Source of the DNA: a virus
Taxonomy: Duplodnaviria; Heunggongvirae; Uroviricota; Caudoviricetes
DNA: 35,503 bases
IMG/VR virus record: IMGVR_UViG_2896595138_000012
Strand: one strand, 5' to 3'
Below the pieces are notes generated by a model that had not been told where the DNA came from, did not search any database, and worked only from the letters and a program-made list of their open reading frames with translations. Positions 8,107-32,217 of this stretch are shown here, one piece after another. A program made the translations under genes and the position numbers. The first letter of the stretch is position 1; every line of letters begins with the position of its first letter.

Positions 8107-8163
8107 TCAACATCCCGCATCCATACGCGGGAGGCTTCCGCACGTCCGTTTCCGGAGGTTCTC

Positions 8164-17793: not shown

Positions 17794-18843
17794 ATGGCCG
17801 CACAGATGTTATCACCACAGGCGCAAAAGTTTTTGCGTAATTACGCCATTTCGATGGCAAAAGCCAATGGCGTATTTACAGCACAACAGTTTTTTACCAT
17901 CAGCCCACCACGTGAAACCCTGCTACGCGATGCCCTGATTGAGAATGCCGACCCGTTCATGGGCAAGATCACCGTCATGCTGGTCGAACAGCTTGTCGGC
18001 CAGGTAGTCAGTACCGGAATTCCGGGGCTGTATACCGGGCGCAAGAAAGACGGACGCTTCAATAAAGCGCTGGGGAGTGAAGGCAACGAGTACAAGCTTT
18101 ACGAAGTGGATTCCGGTTCATTCCTGGACTACACCACCCTGACCAACTGGGCAAACGCAGGCACCGAAAACGAGTTCTATAACCGTCTTCAGGCGTTCTT
18201 TTACAAGTCAGTCACCAACGACCTGTTACGCGTGGCACTGAACGGTACGCATGCCGCAGATGAAACCAATCCTGATACCTGCCCGAACGGGGAAGATATT
18301 CACCCGGGATGGCATCAGATTGTTAAAGCGCGCACACCAAAACAGATCATTACTGACAAGGTCGTATTGAACCGTACAGGAACCGGGGCTGATTTTACGT
18401 CTGTTGATGCTATTGCCGCCGATGTAATTAATACCTGCATTCCACCCGAATTCCGTCAACACCCGGATCTGGTTGTACTGGTATCACAGAACATTATCGC
18501 AGCAGATACGGTCAGTATGCTGAACCGCATCGACCGCCCGACAGAAAAAGTCGCCGCCCAGCTTATCAACCGTGAGATCGCCGGACGCAAGTCATTCAGT
18601 CCGCCATTTATGCCGGATAACCGCCTGGTTGTCACCACGCTCTGGAATCTGCATATGTACTTCCAGCGCGGAACACAGCAACGCCGTGCTGAATGGATTG
18701 ATGACCGCAAACGCTTCGAAAACAACTGGCTGCGTATGCAGGGTTGCGCCGTGGAATATGACGCACTCTACGGTTCATTTGACAACATTGAACTGGCGGG
18801 ACTGCCATCACCTGAACATGCGAAACCAAACCAGGTAGCATAA
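17794..18843 (+). CDS. Major capsid protein (P2 gpN-like)
   Basis: 349 aa following scaffold gene; GGAG RBS; P2-type head gene order. Confidence 0.8.
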   Translation: MAAQMLSPQAQKFLRNYAISMAKANGVFTAQQFFTISPPRETLLRDALIENADPFMGKITVMLVEQLVGQVVSTGIPGLYTGRKKDGRFNKALGSEGNEYKLYEVDSGSFLDYTTLTNWANAGTENEFYNRLQAFFYKSVTNDLLRVALNGTHAADETNPDTCPNGEDIHPGWHQIVKARTPKQIITDKVVLNRTGTGADFTSVDAIAADVINTCIPPEFRQHPDLVVLVSQNIIAADTVSMLNRIDRPTEKVAAQLINREIAGRKSFSPPFMPDNRLVVTTLWNLHMYFQRGTQQRRAEWIDDRKRFENNWLRMQGCAVEYDALYGSFDNIELAGLPSPEHAKPNQVA

Positions 18844-18854
18844 CGGTCTGACGT

Positions 18855-19556
18855 ATGCAGACTCCGGCGCAAAAGTTCAGAGCCAGACTGGCCGCGCAGC
18901 AGGCGATGGAACGCCACGAGGCACTGACCGTACGCGACAGTCTTCATCTGCAACTGGCGCAACTGGAAATCGACTGCAGGGCTGTGAGCAGTTGCGCCAC
19001 CAACGCCGATCGTGTGGCATTCAAGCGTGAATCCCTGCTGCCGCGCTGGATGCCGACGATTGAGGCGTGGCTGCAAAGCGGCGAGGAGTACAAATACATC
19101 CCGTTTACCTGGTGCATCGTCTGGCTGTTTGATACCGGCGAAATGGACAAAGCCCTGGAATGGGCCGATATCGCCATCGGGCAGAATCAACCCATGCCAC
19201 CACGCTTTGACCGTGATTTGCCAACGTTCGTTGCCGATGAGGTCATGCAGTGGGCACAGATTCAGTTTGATAAAGGCCTTTCCGTCGAGCCCTATTTCAG
19301 CCGCGTGATGAGCCATATCGAAAAAGACTGGACACTGCACGAAGAGATAGTTGCCAGATGGTACAAATTCGCCGGTCTTAACCTGTTACGGGACAGCGAT
19401 GGCAAACCGACAACCCCGGCCGCCATTTACGACGTGGCGAAACTACGTAGCGCCGATGAGTGGATGGCCCGTGCGCACAGCACCACCCCCAAAGCAGGTG
19501 TTCGCGCCATACGAAACAAAATAGCCGCCCGTCTGCGCGCATTACGGGCGGTATAA
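18855..19556 (+). CDS. Terminase small/endonuclease subunit (P2 gpM-like)
   Basis: 233 aa immediately after capsid gene in O-N-M-L order. Confidence 0.75.
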   Translation: MQTPAQKFRARLAAQQAMERHEALTVRDSLHLQLAQLEIDCRAVSSCATNADRVAFKRESLLPRWMPTIEAWLQSGEEYKYIPFTWCIVWLFDTGEMDKALEWADIAIGQNQPMPPRFDRDLPTFVADEVMQWAQIQFDKGLSVEPYFSRVMSHIEKDWTLHEEIVARWYKFAGLNLLRDSDGKPTTPAAIYDVAKLRSADEWMARAHSTTPKAGVRAIRNKIAARLRALRAV

Positions 19557-19660
19557 CGAAAGCCCCACGGCTTCAGGCGGGCACGGTGAGGATGACACGC
19601 ACAAGCGTCAGTCATGCCGCAGAACCGTTCGCCCGACCTGACCTACACAGAGAATCAGTC

Positions 19661-20131
19661 ATGAACCTGAAACCAGGCTACAGCACAGACCAGAACACAG
19701 ACACTGCTACAGGCATGCTTAAAAATGATGGCTTCTGGCCGGATCTGGTCATGGCTGATTTTCGCAGAAGCCGAACTATCCCACTGGATATCCCTGCATC
19801 ACTGGCAGAACAGGCGTTATTGTCTGCCGTCTTTGAGGTGAACACCGCACTGACCGGTGTGAAATCCCGCTACGTAGTGCAGGGAATAGCGCAGGCGGCG
19901 GACGTGGAAGGCCCGCAACTTAACGGCGAAAGCGCCCTTTGCGCACAGTACAAAAAAGCGGTCTTTGCCCGCGCCAAAGCCGATCTTCTCGGTGAGTTTA
20001 CGGCGGTGAACACCCGCCACGCCGACAGCAATATCGACAGTAATGACACCCGCGAAACCCTGCTTGCTGAAGCGGCCTTTGTGCTGCGTGCTATCCAGGG
20101 CGCAGGCCGTGTGGGAGTGTACATCTTATGA
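19661..20131 (+). CDS. Head completion/stabilisation protein (P2 gpL-like)
   Basis: Start at ATG giving MNLKPGYSTDQ; position after small terminase; stop overlaps next start. Confidence 0.7.
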   Translation: MNLKPGYSTDQNTDTATGMLKNDGFWPDLVMADFRRSRTIPLDIPASLAEQALLSAVFEVNTALTGVKSRYVVQGIAQAADVEGPQLNGESALCAQYKKAVFARAKADLLGEFTAVNTRHADSNIDSNDTRETLLAEAAFVLRAIQGAGRVGVYIL

Positions 20132-20607
20132 GCCAGTTCGACAGCCTTTATGCATATCTGCGGCAGGTGTTTGACATTTCCGTGTTTGACAATACCGGCT
20201 TTGATTCGTGGATGAGTGATATTCGTCTTTTGCCCGCAGAGAAAGACATGGGGCTTGGACAGATAAGAATGGGTATTCGCCAGTACAACGCCGTGTTCGA
20301 CTGGCAGCGCTGGCCATGGCGTCAGGTTGACCCTGATTTGCTGTTATGCGCCCTGCTTGTCTGGCGGGACGAACAGGCTAATGACTACTACAGCCAGCTT
20401 GAGCTTGATGCGCCGGATGTCAACATCGAACCCACGGACGACAACATTGCAGAAGTGACTGTCAGTATGCCGCTCGCTGACCCCATCATTCTGATCCCGG
20501 ACGAGGCCGGTTTTATCATGATGGGCGGCATCCGTTACCGGCTGGATAAGCCAGAGATCTGGGTGGCAGAAAATATCACTGTATCCACCATCAGGGCAGG
20601 GAAATAA
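20128..20607 (+). CDS. Virion structural protein (head-tail joining candidate)
   Basis: 159 aa, translationally coupled within the late operon. Confidence 0.5.
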   Translation: MSQFDSLYAYLRQVFDISVFDNTGFDSWMSDIRLLPAEKDMGLGQIRMGIRQYNAVFDWQRWPWRQVDPDLLLCALLVWRDEQANDYYSQLELDAPDVNIEPTDDNIAEVTVSMPLADPIILIPDEAGFIMMGGIRYRLDKPEIWVAENITVSTIRAGK

Positions 20608-20610
20608 ACA

Positions 20611-21339
20611 ATGGACATCTCCCTGCACGGCGAACTTAACCGGACACAGCTTAAGCAGCTGCAGACAATGCTGGCCAACGGTGAGCTCCCCCCGGCAAAA
20701 CAACAGCGTCTGCTGCAGCGTATCGCAAAACGCGGCGTTATTCCGGCCGCAAAGCGCCATGTTCGCGAACAAAAGAATGTTGATGGCAGCAGTTTTGCAG
20801 AACGCCGCTATGGCAACAGACCGCTGCTGAAGGGGCTCCCTAAATTTCTGAAAGTGCACGACATGCCATCAGCGAAATCGGTGCGTATATACGCAGCAGG
20901 CAGGAGCTATCGCCAGCCCCACAACCACAGGGAAATCAGCGTGGGTGCAGTGGGATATATCCAGAGCCATGGCGTTACGTTCACAGTGAACGCATCGCAG
21001 CTGAAAACCGACGCGATGGAAAAAGCCAGCAAGGAACCCTGCTCCCGCCGTCAGGCGATAAAGCTGCGCAAGCTGGGCTATACGGTGAGCGGCAAAAAAA
21101 GGGGGACGCGCCGCAAACCATCAACGGCAGATATCCGGACGTCGCTCACGAAAGGGCAGGCAGGCGTGATTATCCGCAGCATGGAAGGCATACCATCCAA
21201 AAGCTGCTGGACGATAACCATCCCACCCCGTCAGTTCCTTGGTGTCAGTAACGAGGAATTTGCACGGATACTGTCCCGCCAGTTGCAGGGCATCAATTAT
21301 GGCTGGCAGACAAAGCCGCAGGACATTAAGAGGAAATAA
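20611..21339 (+). CDS. Virion morphogenesis / tail completion protein candidate
   Basis: 242 aa between head and tail sheath genes. Confidence 0.45.
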   Translation: MDISLHGELNRTQLKQLQTMLANGELPPAKQQRLLQRIAKRGVIPAAKRHVREQKNVDGSSFAERRYGNRPLLKGLPKFLKVHDMPSAKSVRIYAAGRSYRQPHNHREISVGAVGYIQSHGVTFTVNASQLKTDAMEKASKEPCSRRQAIKLRKLGYTVSGKKRGTRRKPSTADIRTSLTKGQAGVIIRSMEGIPSKSCWTITIPPRQFLGVSNEEFARILSRQLQGINYGWQTKPQDIKRK

Positions 21340-22932: not shown

Positions 22933-23026
22933 GAAAGACAATGCAAAGCACCCCCACAACTGGAGCGACTGGCTGGCGATAATCAAAGACTGGTTACGTG
23001 GTGATATCCCTCTTGACAGTCTGCTG

Positions 23027-23278
23027 ATGACTGCCGTCATTGCAGCACTCAGAGTGTTTTACACAGGCCGCAGCTGGCGTCGTCTTTTGCTTGAGGTGCC
23101 GTTGTGTTGCCTGCTGGCCGTGGCGGCATTCACCCTCATTAAGCCGGTCCCCGTCGCATGGCTGACCGAAGACTGGCGCGTCGGTATCGGTGCCGCAATT
23201 GGCCTTATTGGTGTTGAACATATCCGGGCACTGGGTGTGTTCATCACAAAGAAATTTGCAGGGAAAAGTGACGAATGA
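23027..23278 (+). CDS. Holin (N-terminus probably lies upstream at 22941, see findings)
   Basis: 83 aa with two hydrophobic helices and charged C-terminus; stop overlaps lysozyme start. Confidence 0.6.
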   Translation: MTAVIAALRVFYTGRSWRRLLLEVPLCCLLAVAAFTLIKPVPVAWLTEDWRVGIGAAIGLIGVEHIRALGVFITKKFAGKSDE

Positions 23279-23718
23279 AAATTTCAGACAACGGGCTGGC
23301 CGCACTTAAACGCGAAGAAAACTGCAAACTGACCGCTTACCCCGATCCGCGCGGCGTATGGACCATTGGTACAGGTCACACAGGAAAGGTTGATGGTGTC
23401 GCAGTTCACAAAGGCATGACCATCACCCAGGACACCGCCGACAGACTGCTACGCGACGATCTGTCATGGGTGGAGCACTGCATCGCTGAACGGGTAACAG
23501 TTCCGCTGAACCAGAGTCAGTATGACGCGTTGTGTAGCCTGATTTTCAATATCGGCGCTGACGCTTTTATCGGTTCCACCGTTCGCCGTCAGTTAAACGC
23601 CGGCAACTACACCGCCGCCGCTGATGCTTTCCTGAAATGGAGCCGCGCAGGCAGTAACCCGACAATTCTGGCCCCGCGTCGCGGACGTGAGCGGGCAATG
23701 TTTCTGGGACAGAGGTAA
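23275..23718 (+). CDS. Phage lysozyme / endolysin (GH24, T4-lysozyme-like)
   Basis: 147 aa; catalytic E-x9-D-x5-T triad region REENCKLTAYPDPRGVWTIGTGHT. Confidence 0.85.
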   Translation: MKISDNGLAALKREENCKLTAYPDPRGVWTIGTGHTGKVDGVAVHKGMTITQDTADRLLRDDLSWVEHCIAERVTVPLNQSQYDALCSLIFNIGADAFIGSTVRRQLNAGNYTAAADAFLKWSRAGSNPTILAPRRGRERAMFLGQR

Positions 23719-23724
23719 GGCCAC

Positions 23725-24189
23725 ATGAAACGCGCAACACTCGCCTTTATCGTCTTCATGGTCGTCGCCGTGGCCGTGCTCGGCTTCACAGCTGACTACT
23801 GGCACAACCGCTTCACCAGGGCAGAAAAAGCCCGCCAGAAAGCCGTAAATCTTGCCGACACCCGACAGCAGACCATTGACGACATGACACTGCGTCAGCG
23901 CCAGAACGCCGCGCTTGATGCGAAATACACAAAGGAGCTCGCCAATGCAAAAGCTGAATCCGAAAAGTTACGCGCCGATCTTGCTTCTGGCCGTCGCCGG
24001 TTGCAGCTCCACGCCGTCTGTATGCCCGCCGCCACGCGTGATACCACCGCCACCGGCTCAACTGATGCAACCGCCGCCCGACTTACTCCGGACGCTGAAC
24101 GGGATTATCAGCATCTCAGAGCCGAAGCGAAAGCCGTCGTTGCACAAGTGAACGGCCTGCAACAGTACATTACTGAACAATGTCATTAA
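23725..24189 (+). CDS. Rz-like i-spanin
   Basis: 154 aa; N-terminal TM anchor then charged coiled-coil periplasmic domain; follows lysozyme. Confidence 0.7.
   Translation: MKRATLAFIVFMVVAVAVLGFTADYWHNRFTRAEKARQKAVNLADTRQQTIDDMTLRQRQNAALDAKYTKELANAKAESEKLRADLASGRRRLQLHAVCMPAATRDTTATGSTDATAARLTPDAERDYQHLRAEAKAVVAQVNGLQQYITEQCH
23945..24151 (+). CDS. Rz1-like o-spanin lipoprotein (embedded in Rz, +1 frame)
   Basis: AGGAG RBS; signal peptide with lipobox LAVAGC; proline-rich mature part. Confidence 0.7.
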   Translation: MQKLNPKSYAPILLLAVAGCSSTPSVCPPPRVIPPPPAQLMQPPPDLLRTLNGIISISEPKRKPSLHK

Positions 24190-24192
24190 AAA

Positions 24193-24492
24193 ATGGCACC
24201 ACTCACCGGGGAAAATAGCATGAAAGACGAAAATACCACCATCATCACCCTGACCGTCGCAGGCGAGGACATTCGCTTCGCCCCGACCGAAGCTGTCTAC
24301 AACAAGTTCGTGAATGAAATAACGATGGATAACAAGGTGGCGCCAGCCAAAAACTACCTGATGCGCTGTGTACACCCGGAAGACAAAGAGAAACTGGAGA
24401 AGCTCATTCACCGCCCGGGAGCAGCCCTTCAGATGGCAGCAAAACTCAATGAAGATTTTGCCGTCAATCTGGATATCACCGTAAAAAAATAA
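24193..24492 (+). CDS. Tail assembly chaperone (P2 gpE-like); -1 frameshift product would extend to 24680
   Basis: 99 aa ending VKK at an A AAA AAA heptamer directly before the tape measure gene. Confidence 0.65.
   Translation: MAPLTGENSMKDENTTIITLTVAGEDIRFAPTEAVYNKFVNEITMDNKVAPAKNYLMRCVHPEDKEKLEKLIHRPGAALQMAAKLNEDFAVNLDITVKK
24483..24489 (+). other. Programmed -1 ribosomal frameshift slippery heptamer
   Basis: A_AAA_AAA in X_XXY_YYZ register at the last two codons of the chaperone; -1 frame open to a TAA at 24678-24680. Confidence 0.6.
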
Positions 24493-24819
24493 AGGCGGCA
24501 CTGTCCGGCATTGAGCGCAACGGCTACGCGCAATATCTGGTATTACGCCGCCACTGGCTACCGGATGGCGAGGACACACCGGAAGACATTGCCGCTGCGG
24601 TCTGGCTGGACAACCGTTATTTCGAAAACATGAGTATTGCCGTCAATAACGGCATTGCGAGAGCATTTAAAGGTGGGTAATGGCTGCTGAACTTGATTTT
24701 ACGCTAAGTCTGGTTGATAAGCTGACGAGACCCTTAAAACAGGCGCAATCGGCTGTGACCGGATTTGCTGACAAGGCAACAGCCGACTTTAAACGTCTCG
24801 GTTTTGGTGTGGCCGGGTT

Positions 24820-26760
24820 ATGGGGGCTGCTCAGGGAATAAAAGGACTGGTCAACCCCGCCCGCGACATGGAAGCCGCGCTGGCCGAAGTCAGCTCGCTG
24901 GATGTGGCAAATAAAACACTCGATCAGCTGCGTAAAACTTCACAGACGTTTGCCATTAACTACGGCGAAAGCGCCAGCAATTTCGTCCGCAGCGCCTACG
25001 ATATCCAGTCCGCCATCGCAGGACTTCAGGGTGACGAACTGCCAAAATTTACTGAAGCATCCGCCATTCTCGCCAAAGCCACCAAATCAGACACGGCCAC
25101 CATTACTAACTATATGGGCACCATGTACGGTGTTTTTAAAAATACCGCAGAGAAGATGGGGCGCACGCAGTGGGTTGAACAAATTGCCGGGCAGACCGCA
25201 ACCGCCGTTCAGGTGTTCAAAACTACCGGTAATGAAATGTCTGCTGCCTTTACTGCGCTGGGTGCCAACGCGCAGGCAATGAAGGTATCTGCCGCTGAAC
25301 AGTTCGCCGTACTGGGACAGCTCCAGTCCACCATGTCAGGCAGCGAGGCGGGAACCAAATATAAATCATTCCTGGCGGGGATTGGGAATGCGCAAAAAGT
25401 GCTGGGGCTGAACTTTACCAACCGGGACGGCAGTGCCAGAAGCATTACCGGTATCATCGACCTGATTAAAGGAAAGTTTGGCGATCTGTCAAAAGTGGCA
25501 GATGCAGACCTGCTGAAAAAAGCCTTTGGCAGCGATGAAGCGGTGTCCATGATTAAACTACTGACCGGAGATGTTGACGGGCTGAAACGGAACATCAATA
25601 CATTAGGTAACATCAAAGGCATGGATAAAGCCATCGAAATGGCGAAAAAGATGGTTGACCCGTGGGATCAGGTTAATTCTTTACTGGAGCAGGTTCGCGT
25701 CAGCATTGGTCTGCGGCTCGATCCCGTCTTTGCCCCGTTCCTGCAAAAAATCATCACCGGCGGGAAAGCCTTCATGAAATGGCTGGATACGTTCCCCAAT
25801 ATTGCCCGCTGGCTGGGATATATCACTGCAATGACCCTCGCCTTTGCCGCAGCAGGGGCGCTTGCCAGTATCACGATGGGGGCCTTCGGCTTTATCATGA
25901 CCGGGCTCAGCGGAATTGCTGGCGTGCTGAAAGGCGCATGGAAAGGACTAATCTTCACCCTGGATTTATTACGCCCCTCCCTGCTTTCAACCCGTCTTGG
26001 CCTGATGGGGCTATGGATTCAGGAAAAAGCCGTCTGGGTGTGGTCAAAGCTGGTCGCTCTTTGGGCAGGGATCTGTAAAGCAGCGATCGTAGCCTGGAAC
26101 GTAGTGTTACGTGCGGGCGCGGTTGCAATGCGCCTGTGGGGCGTGGCGACGGCATTCGCAGGCGGTGCGCTTCAACTCCTGATAAGTCCCATAACCCTGA
26201 TTATTCTCGCCATTGCCGCACTTGCCGTAGGGATCTGTCTGGCTATCAAATACTGGGACAGTATTAAAGCCGCCATCATGGACACGGAAGCTTTCAGTGC
26301 CCTGCTAAAAGTCATTAACGCTGTGGTGGGCTGGTTTGATGATGCATGGAACAGCATTAAAGCCGGATGGGACAATCTGACGAACTGGTTTAAAAATTTC
26401 TCGCTGGCCGACACATTCGGCAATATCACAGCTGGAATTGGCAAGCTCTTTGACGGCATATGGGATTCCATTAAGAGCGCCTTTACCGGGACATGGAACT
26501 GGATAGCAGAGAAGCTCAACAAAATCCCCGGTGTCAATATCAGCACCGCACAACAGACCGTCGCACCGACACCCGCCCCGGAGCTTATCACTGGCAACCG
26601 TAGCGCCGCCATCCAGGGCGGGCCGGTAAGTCACCAGATAAGCAACAACCGGGGCGACAAAGTCACCAATAACAACGTTAAGCAGGATATCACACTGCAC
26701 GTTGACACCCTGGCGACACCGGGACAACTGGCGGAATACAGCGAACTGGCAGCGGGGTGA
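24820..26760 (+). CDS. Tail tape measure protein (5' end apparently frameshifted; true start probably 24680)
   Basis: 646 aa, Ala/Gly-rich with central hydrophobic segments; follows chaperone pair. Confidence 0.8.
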   Translation: MGAAQGIKGLVNPARDMEAALAEVSSLDVANKTLDQLRKTSQTFAINYGESASNFVRSAYDIQSAIAGLQGDELPKFTEASAILAKATKSDTATITNYMGTMYGVFKNTAEKMGRTQWVEQIAGQTATAVQVFKTTGNEMSAAFTALGANAQAMKVSAAEQFAVLGQLQSTMSGSEAGTKYKSFLAGIGNAQKVLGLNFTNRDGSARSITGIIDLIKGKFGDLSKVADADLLKKAFGSDEAVSMIKLLTGDVDGLKRNINTLGNIKGMDKAIEMAKKMVDPWDQVNSLLEQVRVSIGLRLDPVFAPFLQKIITGGKAFMKWLDTFPNIARWLGYITAMTLAFAAAGALASITMGAFGFIMTGLSGIAGVLKGAWKGLIFTLDLLRPSLLSTRLGLMGLWIQEKAVWVWSKLVALWAGICKAAIVAWNVVLRAGAVAMRLWGVATAFAGGALQLLISPITLIILAIAALAVGICLAIKYWDSIKAAIMDTEAFSALLKVINAVVGWFDDAWNSIKAGWDNLTNWFKNFSLADTFGNITAGIGKLFDGIWDSIKSAFTGTWNWIAEKLNKIPGVNISTAQQTVAPTPAPELITGNRSAAIQGGPVSHQISNNRGDKVTNNNVKQDITLHVDTLATPGQLAEYSELAAG

Positions 26761-28270: not shown

Positions 28271-28835
28271 TAAATCACCGGACATTAAGTTGCCGTCATG
28301 GCTGAATCGCGGCGATGTGCTCCGCCTGAAAAACACCTTTATCCGTTTCTGGGGAAAGGTGCACGACTGGGTAACATGGCCACTGAGCCAGACCGACCCA
28401 CTGACATGTGCGGAATCCATTCTGAACCTGACAGCCTGGCAATATGATATAGCCCGTTTTGACGGCGAACCGCTCACGCTGTACAGAAAGCGTGTCAAAT
28501 ATGCCTTTATCAACGCACAGGACGCGGGCAGCGTGGCGGGATTCAGGGCAATTTTTGAACGACTGGGGATCGGTTATGTGGAGATTCAGGAGCGCCAGCC
28601 AGGCACAGACTGGGATGTTGTTCTTTTGCGCCTGACAGACAACCAGATCTCAGAAAATACAACATTACTCAATCAGATAATTCGCCAGTACGGTCGCACC
28701 TGCCGCCGTTACCATCTTCAGATAATCACATCCACGGATTGTGTTATCGGACACGGATACTGGCATGGCAGCTATCACTATTTTTATGCACCGGAGATGA
28801 AAAATGACCCAGAGCGCTATCACTTCAGCATTTGA
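28263..28835 (+). CDS. Baseplate/tail protein (P2 gpI-like candidate)
   Basis: 190 aa between J-like gene and tail fibre. Confidence 0.5.
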   Translation: MPDKSPDIKLPSWLNRGDVLRLKNTFIRFWGKVHDWVTWPLSQTDPLTCAESILNLTAWQYDIARFDGEPLTLYRKRVKYAFINAQDAGSVAGFRAIFERLGIGYVEIQERQPGTDWDVVLLRLTDNQISENTTLLNQIIRQYGRTCRRYHLQIITSTDCVIGHGYWHGSYHYFYAPEMKNDPERYHFSI

Positions 28836-28997
28836 GCGCCTGAAAGCGCAGGAAGCCGCAGGCGGCAACCGTATCATCATTGATCAGTTTGTATTTGCAA
28901 ATATCCCGGATCTGAACATTGCCGACACGCCGTCTGAAAACGAACCATTGCCCCCGATGCACAGATAGTTCACCGCCAGAACGTTGATCGCAACGGA

Positions 28998-30809
28998 ATG
29001 GTAAATGAGAACACCGTCGCCTACTCCGTTACCCTGCCGGAGTCCACGGGTGATTTTACTTTTAACTGGCTGGGTCTGGTAAGCAGCACCACAAATACAC
29101 TTTGTATGGTGGTATATCTTCACCCTCAGAAAAAAATAAAAACCGCAGACGGCAAACAGGGTAATACCCTGATTTATTCTGAAATTATGGAATACGCCGG
29201 AGCCAGCGCCGCAACCGGCATCACCACGCCAGTAAGCACCTGGCAGATTGATTTTACGGCACGGCTTCACGGCATGGACGAGGCCACCCGCAAAGCGGCG
29301 CTGGATATCTACGGGCCTGGCCTGTTCTTTAATAACGCCTTTAAACTCACCGCTCAGGCTACCGGGCAGGCGACCTTCGCGCCGGGTATTGCCTATCTGC
29401 GCGGATTACGTGTGGAGCTGGATGAACAAGGCACACTGACATACGCCACCGGAATTTCACAAACTGTTTATGTTGACGCGGCATTAACCGGTACCCTGAC
29501 CGGGGAAAATAAAGCCATATTCAGCCTGACGAGTCAGAAAACAGCCGACTATACCGACAGTTCAGGATTTGCCCATTATGTCGAACCCATCGCCACAATA
29601 TCAGACAGTGGCGAGATCACCGATATACGAAAAACCCGCAAACCATTAAATGACCGCCTTGATGGCGAATACCTGACCCGTAACGGGAACCTGAAAGAAA
29701 TTGCTGACAAAGGTGAACAGGCCCAGTCTGATGCCAGAAAGCATATGGGCCTCGGCGACAGCGCCACCCTTAATGTTGGCACCGCGCAGGACACTGTAGC
29801 CGCAGGTGACGACATCCGCATCACAGGAGCGCTGCAAAAAAATCAGAACGGAGCAGATATTCCCGATAAACCGCTGTTTATCCAGAACGTTGGTTTACAG
29901 GAAACGGTAAACAAGGCTGATAACGCTGTCCAAAAGACAGGCGATACCTTGTCCGGTGGACTTACTTTTGAAAACGACTCAACCCTTGCCTGGATTCGAA
30001 ATACTGACTGGGCAAAGATTGGTTTTAAAAATAATGCCGACAGCGATACTGATTCATACATGTGGTTTGAAACAGGTGACAACGGCAATGAGTATTTCAA
30101 ATGGAGACACCGCCTCGCTGGCGGCCGGGTTAAAGACCTGATGAATCTCAAATGGGATACACTAAATATTCTGGTTAATGCCGTCATTAATGGTTGTCTT
30201 GGAATTGGTACGACGAATGCGTTAGGTGGAAGTTCAATCGTTTTAGGAGATAACGATACCGGGTTTAAACAAAATGGCGATGGTCTGCTTGATGTTTATG
30301 CGAATGGACAGCATGTATTTCGTTTTCAGAATGGCGTGGCTATTGCTTTTAAGAATATTCAGGCCGGAACTGCCAGAAAATTCACGTTATCCAGCGCCAA
30401 CAACTCCACGAAAAATGCAGCGTTTTGTTTGTGGGGTAATCCATCCAGGCCTGTTGTTGCAGAGCTTGGTGATGATTCAGGCTGGCATTTTTTCAGCCAG
30501 AGGAATACAGATAACAGCATCACGTTCGCCGTAAACGGACAGGTAATTCCGTTAAATTACGGAAACTTCGATGCCCGCTATAAACATCGAACTGAGGGGG
30601 TACAGGATGTGCGATATGGCCATGAAATGTATTACGGCCCCGGCAGTAACACCGTTTCGTGGACATTTCGCGCACCTTCGGGACACGGGCTGTCAGGGGT
30701 AAAGATATCGGATACCCACCGTAACTCAGCGGATAACGTTGACGGTGTGTATTACCGACCGCTGCAAAAACTGATTAATGGCACCTGGTATAACGTAGCG
30801 AGTATTTAA
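28998..30809 (+). CDS. Tail fibre protein (5' end apparently frameshifted; true start probably 28804)
   Basis: 603 aa; AT-rich, Gly/Asn-rich distal half typical of receptor-binding region; followed by fibre assembly gene. Confidence 0.75.
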
Positions 30810-31474: not shown

Positions 31475-31597
31475 ATGTGGTTTCCGGCAAAACTGATGCT
31501 TCCGACAGGTAATATCACCCCCATAACATGTTCAGCTATGGCCGTACATCCGTGGGATGTTGAAGCGGGCACATTACGCCAGACGGTGCGTATTTAA
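31475..31597 (+). CDS. Small ORF of unknown function (possible gene remnant or frameshifted 5' end of next gene)
   Basis: 40 aa; AGAGAGG RBS 6 nt upstream of ATG. Confidence 0.3.
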   Translation: MWFPAKLMLPTGNITPITCSAMAVHPWDVEAGTLRQTVRI

Positions 31598-31671
31598 GCC
31601 CCGTCAACGCAATAAACCACCTTAACAGCAAACTCCCGGGCCTGACCGAAAACAGCGATATCGCCATCATA

Positions 31672-32217
31672 ATGGTAACAGGCAGCAATAATAACGATTT
31701 TATTCGTCAACTGTCAGCACTGGCAGACACACTCCCTTTACCCACTCTGACGCAGACGCTAAGACGCGCAAGAACACAGCTCACCCAGGCAATCACCAGA
31801 ATGCAAATCCCGGCGACACCACAGAACGGACTACCCGCTCCGCAACCACTTATTGCCAGCACACTACAGAACAGCATCAGTAACCACACCGCGCTTAACG
31901 CTATGAAGGCCGAAGGGCTGAACTCTGTCGACTCACTGAAAAACGCGTTATCCGGTTTTCAGGCACAACGTCAACGGTTGCAGCAACAGATAATCGCTGA
32001 ACTGGCAGGAGCAGGCGATAAAGTGGCAAAAGCATTTGCGTTCGTGCACACCGGCGACGCCGTTTTAGCCCGCCGGGAAATGATGAAAAATATTCCGCAC
32101 CCCACAGCTTCACTGACATATGCACACCTGTTCGCAGGCGATCTTTCCGGGATGCTGAACTGGATAACGAAGGCAGAAAATGAGCCAGAACACGACAACG
32201 CCACTGCTGGCCCTTAA
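31672..32217 (+). CDS. Tail/baseplate-associated protein candidate
   Basis: 181-aa ORF in late tail operon. Confidence 0.45.
   Translation: MVTGSNNNDFIRQLSALADTLPLPTLTQTLRRARTQLTQAITRMQIPATPQNGLPAPQPLIASTLQNSISNHTALNAMKAEGLNSVDSLKNALSGFQAQRQRLQQQIIAELAGAGDKVAKAFAFVHTGDAVLARREMMKNIPHPTASLTYAHLFAGDLSGMLNWITKAENEPEHDNATAGP

Follow-up and report, generated by a model that had tools for sequence, protein, structure and literature searches.

The tape measure gene of this prophage is split in the analysed record by a single missing G, and the loss is probably an error of the deposited consensus. The window, i.e. the whole 35,503-nucleotide stretch of DNA that was analysed, is part of the Shigella boydii chromosome CP026845.1 (assembly GCA_002950375.1). 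Positions 24680-26760 represent one ordinary tape measure gene, with its true start at the ATG at 24680, in a prophage whose head is of P2 type and whose tail is of HP1 type. The reading frame breaks after codon 49, where the record has GGGGG while the real sequence is most likely GGGGGG, and the missing G would result from a homopolymer under-call in a long-read assembly consensus rather than from biology. The gene region contains the following features, all on the + strand:

24670-24677, + strand: Shine-Dalgarno-like sequence AAGGTGGG upstream of the ATG at 24680, as read from the sequence
24680-24841, + strand: 53-codon ORF of the ORF listing (MAAELDFTLSLVDKLTRPLKQAQSAVTGFADKATADFKRLGFGVAGLWGLLRE), with its stop codon at 24839-24841
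24820-26760, + strand: 646-codon ORF with the remainder of the tape measure gene, corresponding to residues 49-693 of the intact protein (ORF listing, tblastn)
24822-24826, + strand: G5 run (GGGGG) within the overlap of the 53-codon and 646-codon ORFs (alignment, difference lists)
24680-26760, + strand: whole tape measure gene, 2082 nt and 693 aa long after addition of the missing G (relatives have the intact CDS WP_000718630.1 here)

As found by tblastn, the authentic part of the 53-codon ORF consists of its first 49 codons (24680-24826; query residues 1-49, 100% identity), the out-of-frame part being limited to its last four codons (LLRE). The 646-codon ORF lies one base behind the frame of the 53-codon ORF (-1). 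In assemblies with an intact gene, the position of the run at 24822 has six G's and reads TGG GGG GCT (W-G-A). The initial annotation had described the ATG at 24680 as overlapping the stop codon of the frameshifted chaperone (TAATG) and as opening a 53-codon frame that ends at 24839-24841, and had placed the main 646-aa frame at 24820 and a G5 run at 24822-24826. All of this is borne out by the sequence and the ORF listing, and the single added G which it had invoked to fuse both frames yields exactly the 693-aa tape measure protein that is intact in other assemblies. It had also pointed to a comparison with related prophages, in which homologues starting at the equivalent of 24820 would have spoken against a fused gene. 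When this comparison was made, the homologues proved to be single ORFs that start at the equivalent of 24680, and none with a start equivalent to 24820 was found among the homologues examined.

The same prophage occurs with at least 99.5% identity in six complete E. coli genomes (CFSAN029787, FDAARGOS_943, RMDEC332, RMDEC364, VL40, VL46). In these genomes, a sixth G lengthens the region by one base, and a single 2082-nt CDS codes for a 693-aa 'phage tail tape measure protein'. The intact 693-aa protein is found in these six genomes, in six IMG/VR contigs and in a dozen further assemblies, and 23 contigs examined encode the window's own allele in intact form (P0124, with KLLTGD). A protein search with the intact protein returned 3843 relatives. 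The best 120 of these 3843 reach down to 59% identity; almost all of them have 688-724 aa and are matched over 100% of the query, the shorter entries being partial sequences, and their N-termini follow the pattern MAAELDFTLSLVDKLT(K/R)PLKQAQSA.TGFADK...GLWG. In all homologues examined, the start codon either overlaps the stop codon of the frameshifted chaperone product or follows it directly, and distant E. coli homologues keep the same order of chaperone, DUF6890 extension and a tape measure start at or overlapping that stop. The INPHARED phage collection gave no match by megablast, and a pattern accepting either G5 or G6 had no match in the GTDB representative genomes or in the JGI metagenomes, so that GTDB and JGI contribute no population data.

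The frame break is more than a chance arrangement of two ORFs, because the 49 residues ahead of it match the N-terminus of the 693-aa protein from near-identical prophages at 100% identity and are conserved in homologues down to 59% identity. A single continuous full-length ORF is present in 23 of 23 G6 loci and is lacking in this record, where the frame is broken after codon 49; the failure thus belongs to the sequence record and not to the gene family.

The intact protein of about 690 aa has a long hydrophobic central part and matches PhageMin_Tail (PF10145) with 101.2 bits for the 646-aa part and 100.3 bits for the restored 693 aa, at a cut-off of 33.2; among the NCBIfam models none matched the tape measure protein. 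The Shine-Dalgarno-like sequence ahead of the ATG at 24680 is retained as AAAGGTGGNTAA in Salmonella homologues (P0077, P0118), and its place is taken by AAGGGATCGTAA and AAAGGCACGGAATGA in divergent homologues from E. coli. No convincing ribosome-binding site was seen in the sequence before the ATG at 24820, the best candidate being a GGTG located 11 nt upstream. The ATG at 24820 is an internal, out-of-frame ATG and not a start codon, and there is nothing new about the gene itself, which is a standard member of the PhageMin_Tail family.

The position within the prophage is also the one expected for a tape measure gene, directly downstream of the chaperone pair and followed by genes for DUF2590, baseplate J and tail fibre proteins. 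The chaperone pair is organised as follows:

24193-24492, + strand: 0-frame ORF of the tail assembly chaperone with 99 aa, or 90 aa from the alternative start ATG at 24220 (PF10963 Phage_TAC_10, 105.5 bits); relatives carry the annotation 'putative phage tail assembly chaperone'
24483-24489, + strand: A7 slippery run (GTA AAA AAA TAA; A AAA AAA T), the conserved site of the chaperone -1 frameshift
24489-24680, + strand: -1 frame extension of the chaperone with 63 aa and the stop TAA at 24678-24680 (PF21830 DUF6890, 81.3 bits); a DUF6890 family protein in relatives

Translation with a -1 slip at the A7 run gives a continuous product of 162 aa, in which Phage_TAC_10 is joined to DUF6890 and which ends at 24678-24680. 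This TAA is the first part of the TAATG at 24678-24682 and overlaps the ATG of the tape measure gene.

The prophage as a whole combines P2-type head genes (gpO, gpN, gpM, gpL and gpR families) with HP1-type tail genes (Phage_HP1_Orf24, HP1_ORF34). Its complete lysis cassette (22941-24189) is flanked by the genes for the tail tube and the tail chaperone, while P2 has its lysis genes before the tail genes. The cassette consists of the holin gene, a lysozyme gene (23275-23718) and an Rz-like gene (23725-24189) with an embedded ORF in the +1 frame (23915-24151), which contains LLLAVAGCSS, a lipobox-like motif. Between the ogr-like and portal genes there is a 1.45-kb insertion (12106-13554) with an ORF (12333-13529) for an IS110-family transposase (PF01548 and PF02371). 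The identical 398-aa transposase is found at three other chromosomal sites and at two sites on CP026844.1 of the same assembly, and in no other assembly upon exact look-up. CP026844.1, the companion replicon, is invasion-plasmid-like and encodes IpaC, IpaA-like, OspC and IpaH-type proteins. At position 8110, the window lacks an 11-bp sequence (CATCCCGAAGC), one unit of a short direct repeat, which is present in all relatives compared. Two adjacent ORFs on the - strand (2048-2452 and 2479-2904) each share about 45-55% identity with a helix-turn-helix repressor-like gene that is single in the relatives and, judged by this similarity, look like a tandem pair of repressor paralogues.

The short G-run is not an isolated case in the window. 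Positions 14681-35503 were compared with GCA_012816475.1 and GCA_900450175.1 and show zero substitutions over 20.8 kb. The only window-specific differences are at four G/C homopolymers, at each of which the window is one base short; GCA_900450175.1 has one further insertion in an A-run, which is its own. With three deficits further upstream, where the window differs from every relative examined, the list reads:

10641: G3 in the window, G4 in relatives; gene for the gpA-like replication endonuclease broken
11199: G3 in the window, G4 in relatives
11391: C2 in the window, C3 in relatives
22951: C5 in the window, C6 in the comparators; holin gene broken
24822: G5 in the window, G6 in the comparators; tape measure gene broken
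28951: C5 in the window, C6 in the comparators; tail fibre gene broken
31567: G3 in the window, G4 in the comparators; hypothetical gene broken

The replication endonuclease gene (8583-11098) codes for only 719 aa here compared to 838 aa in relatives, and the deficits at 11199 and 11391 both lie in the next gene (11095-11521), which is broken as well. In the holin gene (22941-23278), the C-run at 22951-22955, which is C6 in all relatives, is close to the start, and a remnant of 83 aa is left instead of 112 aa. One-base deficits also split the tail fibre gene (28804-30809; C-run at 28951-28955), which codes for 668 aa in relatives, and the hypothetical gene (31496-32217; G-run at 31567) for a protein of 240-247 aa. 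Relative to the zero-substitution reference, shortening affects three of the six G/C runs of length 6 and none of the 19 A/T runs with a length of at least 6 (Fisher p = 0.009), and one of the 73 G/C runs of length 4. The total of seven one-base deficits across the window, all in G/C runs and including short G4 and C3 runs, in combination with zero substitutions does not resemble natural decay and, by its pattern in the sequence, has the appearance of homopolymer under-calling in a long-read consensus. Outside the prophage, a 9.9-kb region of the same genome with the rbs operon and kup (locus L040, positions 11300-21197) was compared with E. coli STEC388. Two one-base deficits break rbsC and kup, and neither deficit is a clean homopolymer deletion; with 71 background substitutions, either error or genuine decay in Shigella could account for them, and the region was left out of the evidence.

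When all retrieved loci were tallied, G6 was found in 23 loci from about 20 assemblies and G5 in 7 loci from 3 assemblies. The G5 allele, with the exact 53-aa ORF, is restricted to three S. boydii assemblies and one Logan contig of 1.2 kb (SRR17645348), and it is linked to assemblies with long-read-type errors: none of the retrieved loci from assemblies free of such errors has G5, and none of these shows a G5/G6 polymorphism. The second G5 assembly, GCA_002968245.1, contains three copies of the same prophage region of about 20 kb, all located at contig ends and 0-1 substitutions apart. The copies at the end and at the start of PSSR01000001.1 have G5, while that at the end of PSSR01000002.1 has G6 and an unbroken tape measure gene (product P0125). 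Dozens of further indels, almost all of which are deletions, occur in the low-quality copies. The three copies are untrimmed redundant contig ends which differ in consensus quality. The draft assembly GCA_015341345.1 has the identical allele, and over 15.4 kb its sole difference from the best copy of GCA_002968245.1 is G6 versus G5. The third G5 assembly, GCA_019551055.2 (CP091384.1), has about 55 indels in 17 kb. In it, CCGG is systematically converted to CTTAAG, CTTGG or CCTAG, a motif-specific artefact of base-calling that may be related to methylation, and many short homopolymers are lengthened. The Logan contig has a similar error at CCGG sites together with an A6-to-A5 error.

We considered whether G5 might be an S. 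boydii allele that is shared by descent. The window has zero substitutions against the G6 sequences of GCA_012816475.1 and GCA_900450175.1 and 88 substitutions in 20 kb against the G5 prophage at the end of PSSR01000001.1. G5 is therefore not shared by descent, and this possibility was rejected.

With descent set aside, the G5 run could still be a real mutation, namely a one-base slippage deletion in the G6 run that has inactivated the tape measure gene of a decaying S. boydii prophage and made it a genuine pseudogene. The run might then be a mutational hot spot that was hit independently in a second S. boydii lineage. G5 does occur in three S. boydii assemblies with two prophage variants, the prophage carries an IS110-family insertion and so is not under full purifying selection, Shigella genomes contain many real pseudogenes and decaying prophages, and G/C mononucleotide runs are known slippage hot spots. 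We nevertheless consider this reading unlikely. In natural decay, substitutions far exceed indels, whereas four one-base deletions and zero substitutions are found over 20.8 kb, and all deficits are deletions in G/C runs, even in short G4 and C3 runs. Furthermore, one and the same locus is called as G5 and as G6 within GCA_002968245.1, draft assemblies that carry exactly these two alleles (P0124 and P0125) have an intact gene, and G5 is confined to assemblies with long-read-type errors. It is still less probable, and in our opinion quite improbable, that the G6 tract is genuinely hypermutable, so that a G was lost independently in two S. boydii prophage lineages or that cultures are mixtures of G5 and G6. 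If true, the tract would act as a switch by which a P2/HP1-like prophage turns its tail assembly on and off.

Programmed use of the run was weighed in the same way. It could be a functional slippery site for -1 ribosomal frameshifting or for transcriptional slippage, or changes in its length could turn tail production on or off. The frame would indeed be restored by a -1 shift in the G-run, and the gene just upstream uses a -1 frameshift at its A7 run. However, the two-frame layout is not conserved, as homologues of 59% to 99% identity are single ORFs, and neither is the G-run, which is replaced by TGG GGT GTG in Salmonella and by TGG GGA GTG in one E. coli homologue and is absent from another. 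G GGG GCT does not fit the canonical -1 slippery heptamer X XXY YYZ, and five G's are a short run for transcriptional slippage. For the RNA at 24815-24900, folded without pseudoknots, the minimum free energy is no better than that of shuffled sequence (z = +0.37). Programmed frameshifting at the G-run was rejected, as there is no conserved slippery site and no downstream structure. A phase-variable locus is contradicted by the constant run length outside of the three G5 assemblies with long-read-type errors, drafts of the identical alleles having G6. The functional slippery site or switch is thus highly improbable, and the chance of any programmed or phase-variable behaviour of the run is very slim. 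It is barely credible that the two ORFs are two real genes, one for a 53-aa protein and the other for a shorter tape measure protein of 646 aa starting at 24820, even if both ORFs have been annotated by gene callers, in this record as well as in GCA_002968245.1 (WP_284521020.1, WP_284521042.1). The start at 24820 is used by none of the homologues examined and is not preceded by a convincing ribosome-binding site, the 49 N-terminal residues are conserved within the long protein in every homologue examined, and the 53-aa ORF matches no Pfam family.

We consider it probable that the strain itself has G6 and that the record is wrong at this position due to a homopolymer under-call in the deposited consensus. 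The length difference is confined to a homopolymer within 20.8 kb of otherwise identical sequence, and the same type of error recurs elsewhere, as seven deficits in the window and as the discordant G5, G5 and G6 calls within GCA_002968245.1. CP026832, an accession neighbouring CP026845, is described as PacBio-sequenced, within a set of 59 historical Shigella strains (PMC10132075), and the proximity of the accessions suggests that CP026845 belongs to the same set. There is, however, the counterpoint that three assemblies share this short G-run, in two prophage variants which are 88 substitutions apart in 20 kb, and that in GCA_002968245.1 it alone distinguishes the best copy from a draft over 15.4 kb. 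Under purely random errors, such a coincidence is only moderately likely. Thus, either under-calling happens especially easily at this site, or the run is a true hot spot.

The biological significance of the frame break is small, and the main use of this analysis is a caution about the record and the fragment 'proteins' derived from it. With about one homopolymer deficit per 5 kb, this region of CP026845.1 contains probably false pseudogenes for the replication endonuclease, the holin, the tape measure protein, the tail fibre protein and others. It would mislead judgements on the intactness and inducibility of the prophage as well as counts of Shigella pseudogenes. RefSeq already holds 'proteins' that match the two tape measure fragments.

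The textbook analogue of the tape measure protein is gpT of P2. In that phage, the chaperone pair E/E+E' is made by a -1 frameshift, and T follows. The gene described here shares with the tape measure proteins of P2/HP1-like myoviruses (PF10145) the domain, the position and an intact length of about 690 aa, and there is no difference in kind; the frame break after codon 49 is specific to the record (G5 versus G6). The -1 frameshift mechanism of lambda G/GT and of P2 E/E+E' is present one gene upstream, at the A7 run at 24483-24489, but the break in the tape measure gene has neither a conserved slippery site nor a conserved two-frame layout and so is not a second case of chaperone-type frameshifting. 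The errors described for long-read assemblies are mostly short homopolymer indels that fragment genes (PMC12007338). That nanopore study found more A/T-associated deletions, whereas all runs affected here are G/C, and the recurrence at the same G6 run in three assemblies is another difference from the long-read error pattern. The likeness extends to single-base deletions in homopolymers, to several such deletions within a small region, to zero substitutions, to the splitting of genes and to run lengths that disagree between redundant copies within one assembly (GCA_002968245.1). The frame break in the tape measure gene is best classed with these gene-fragmenting homopolymer errors of long-read assemblies.
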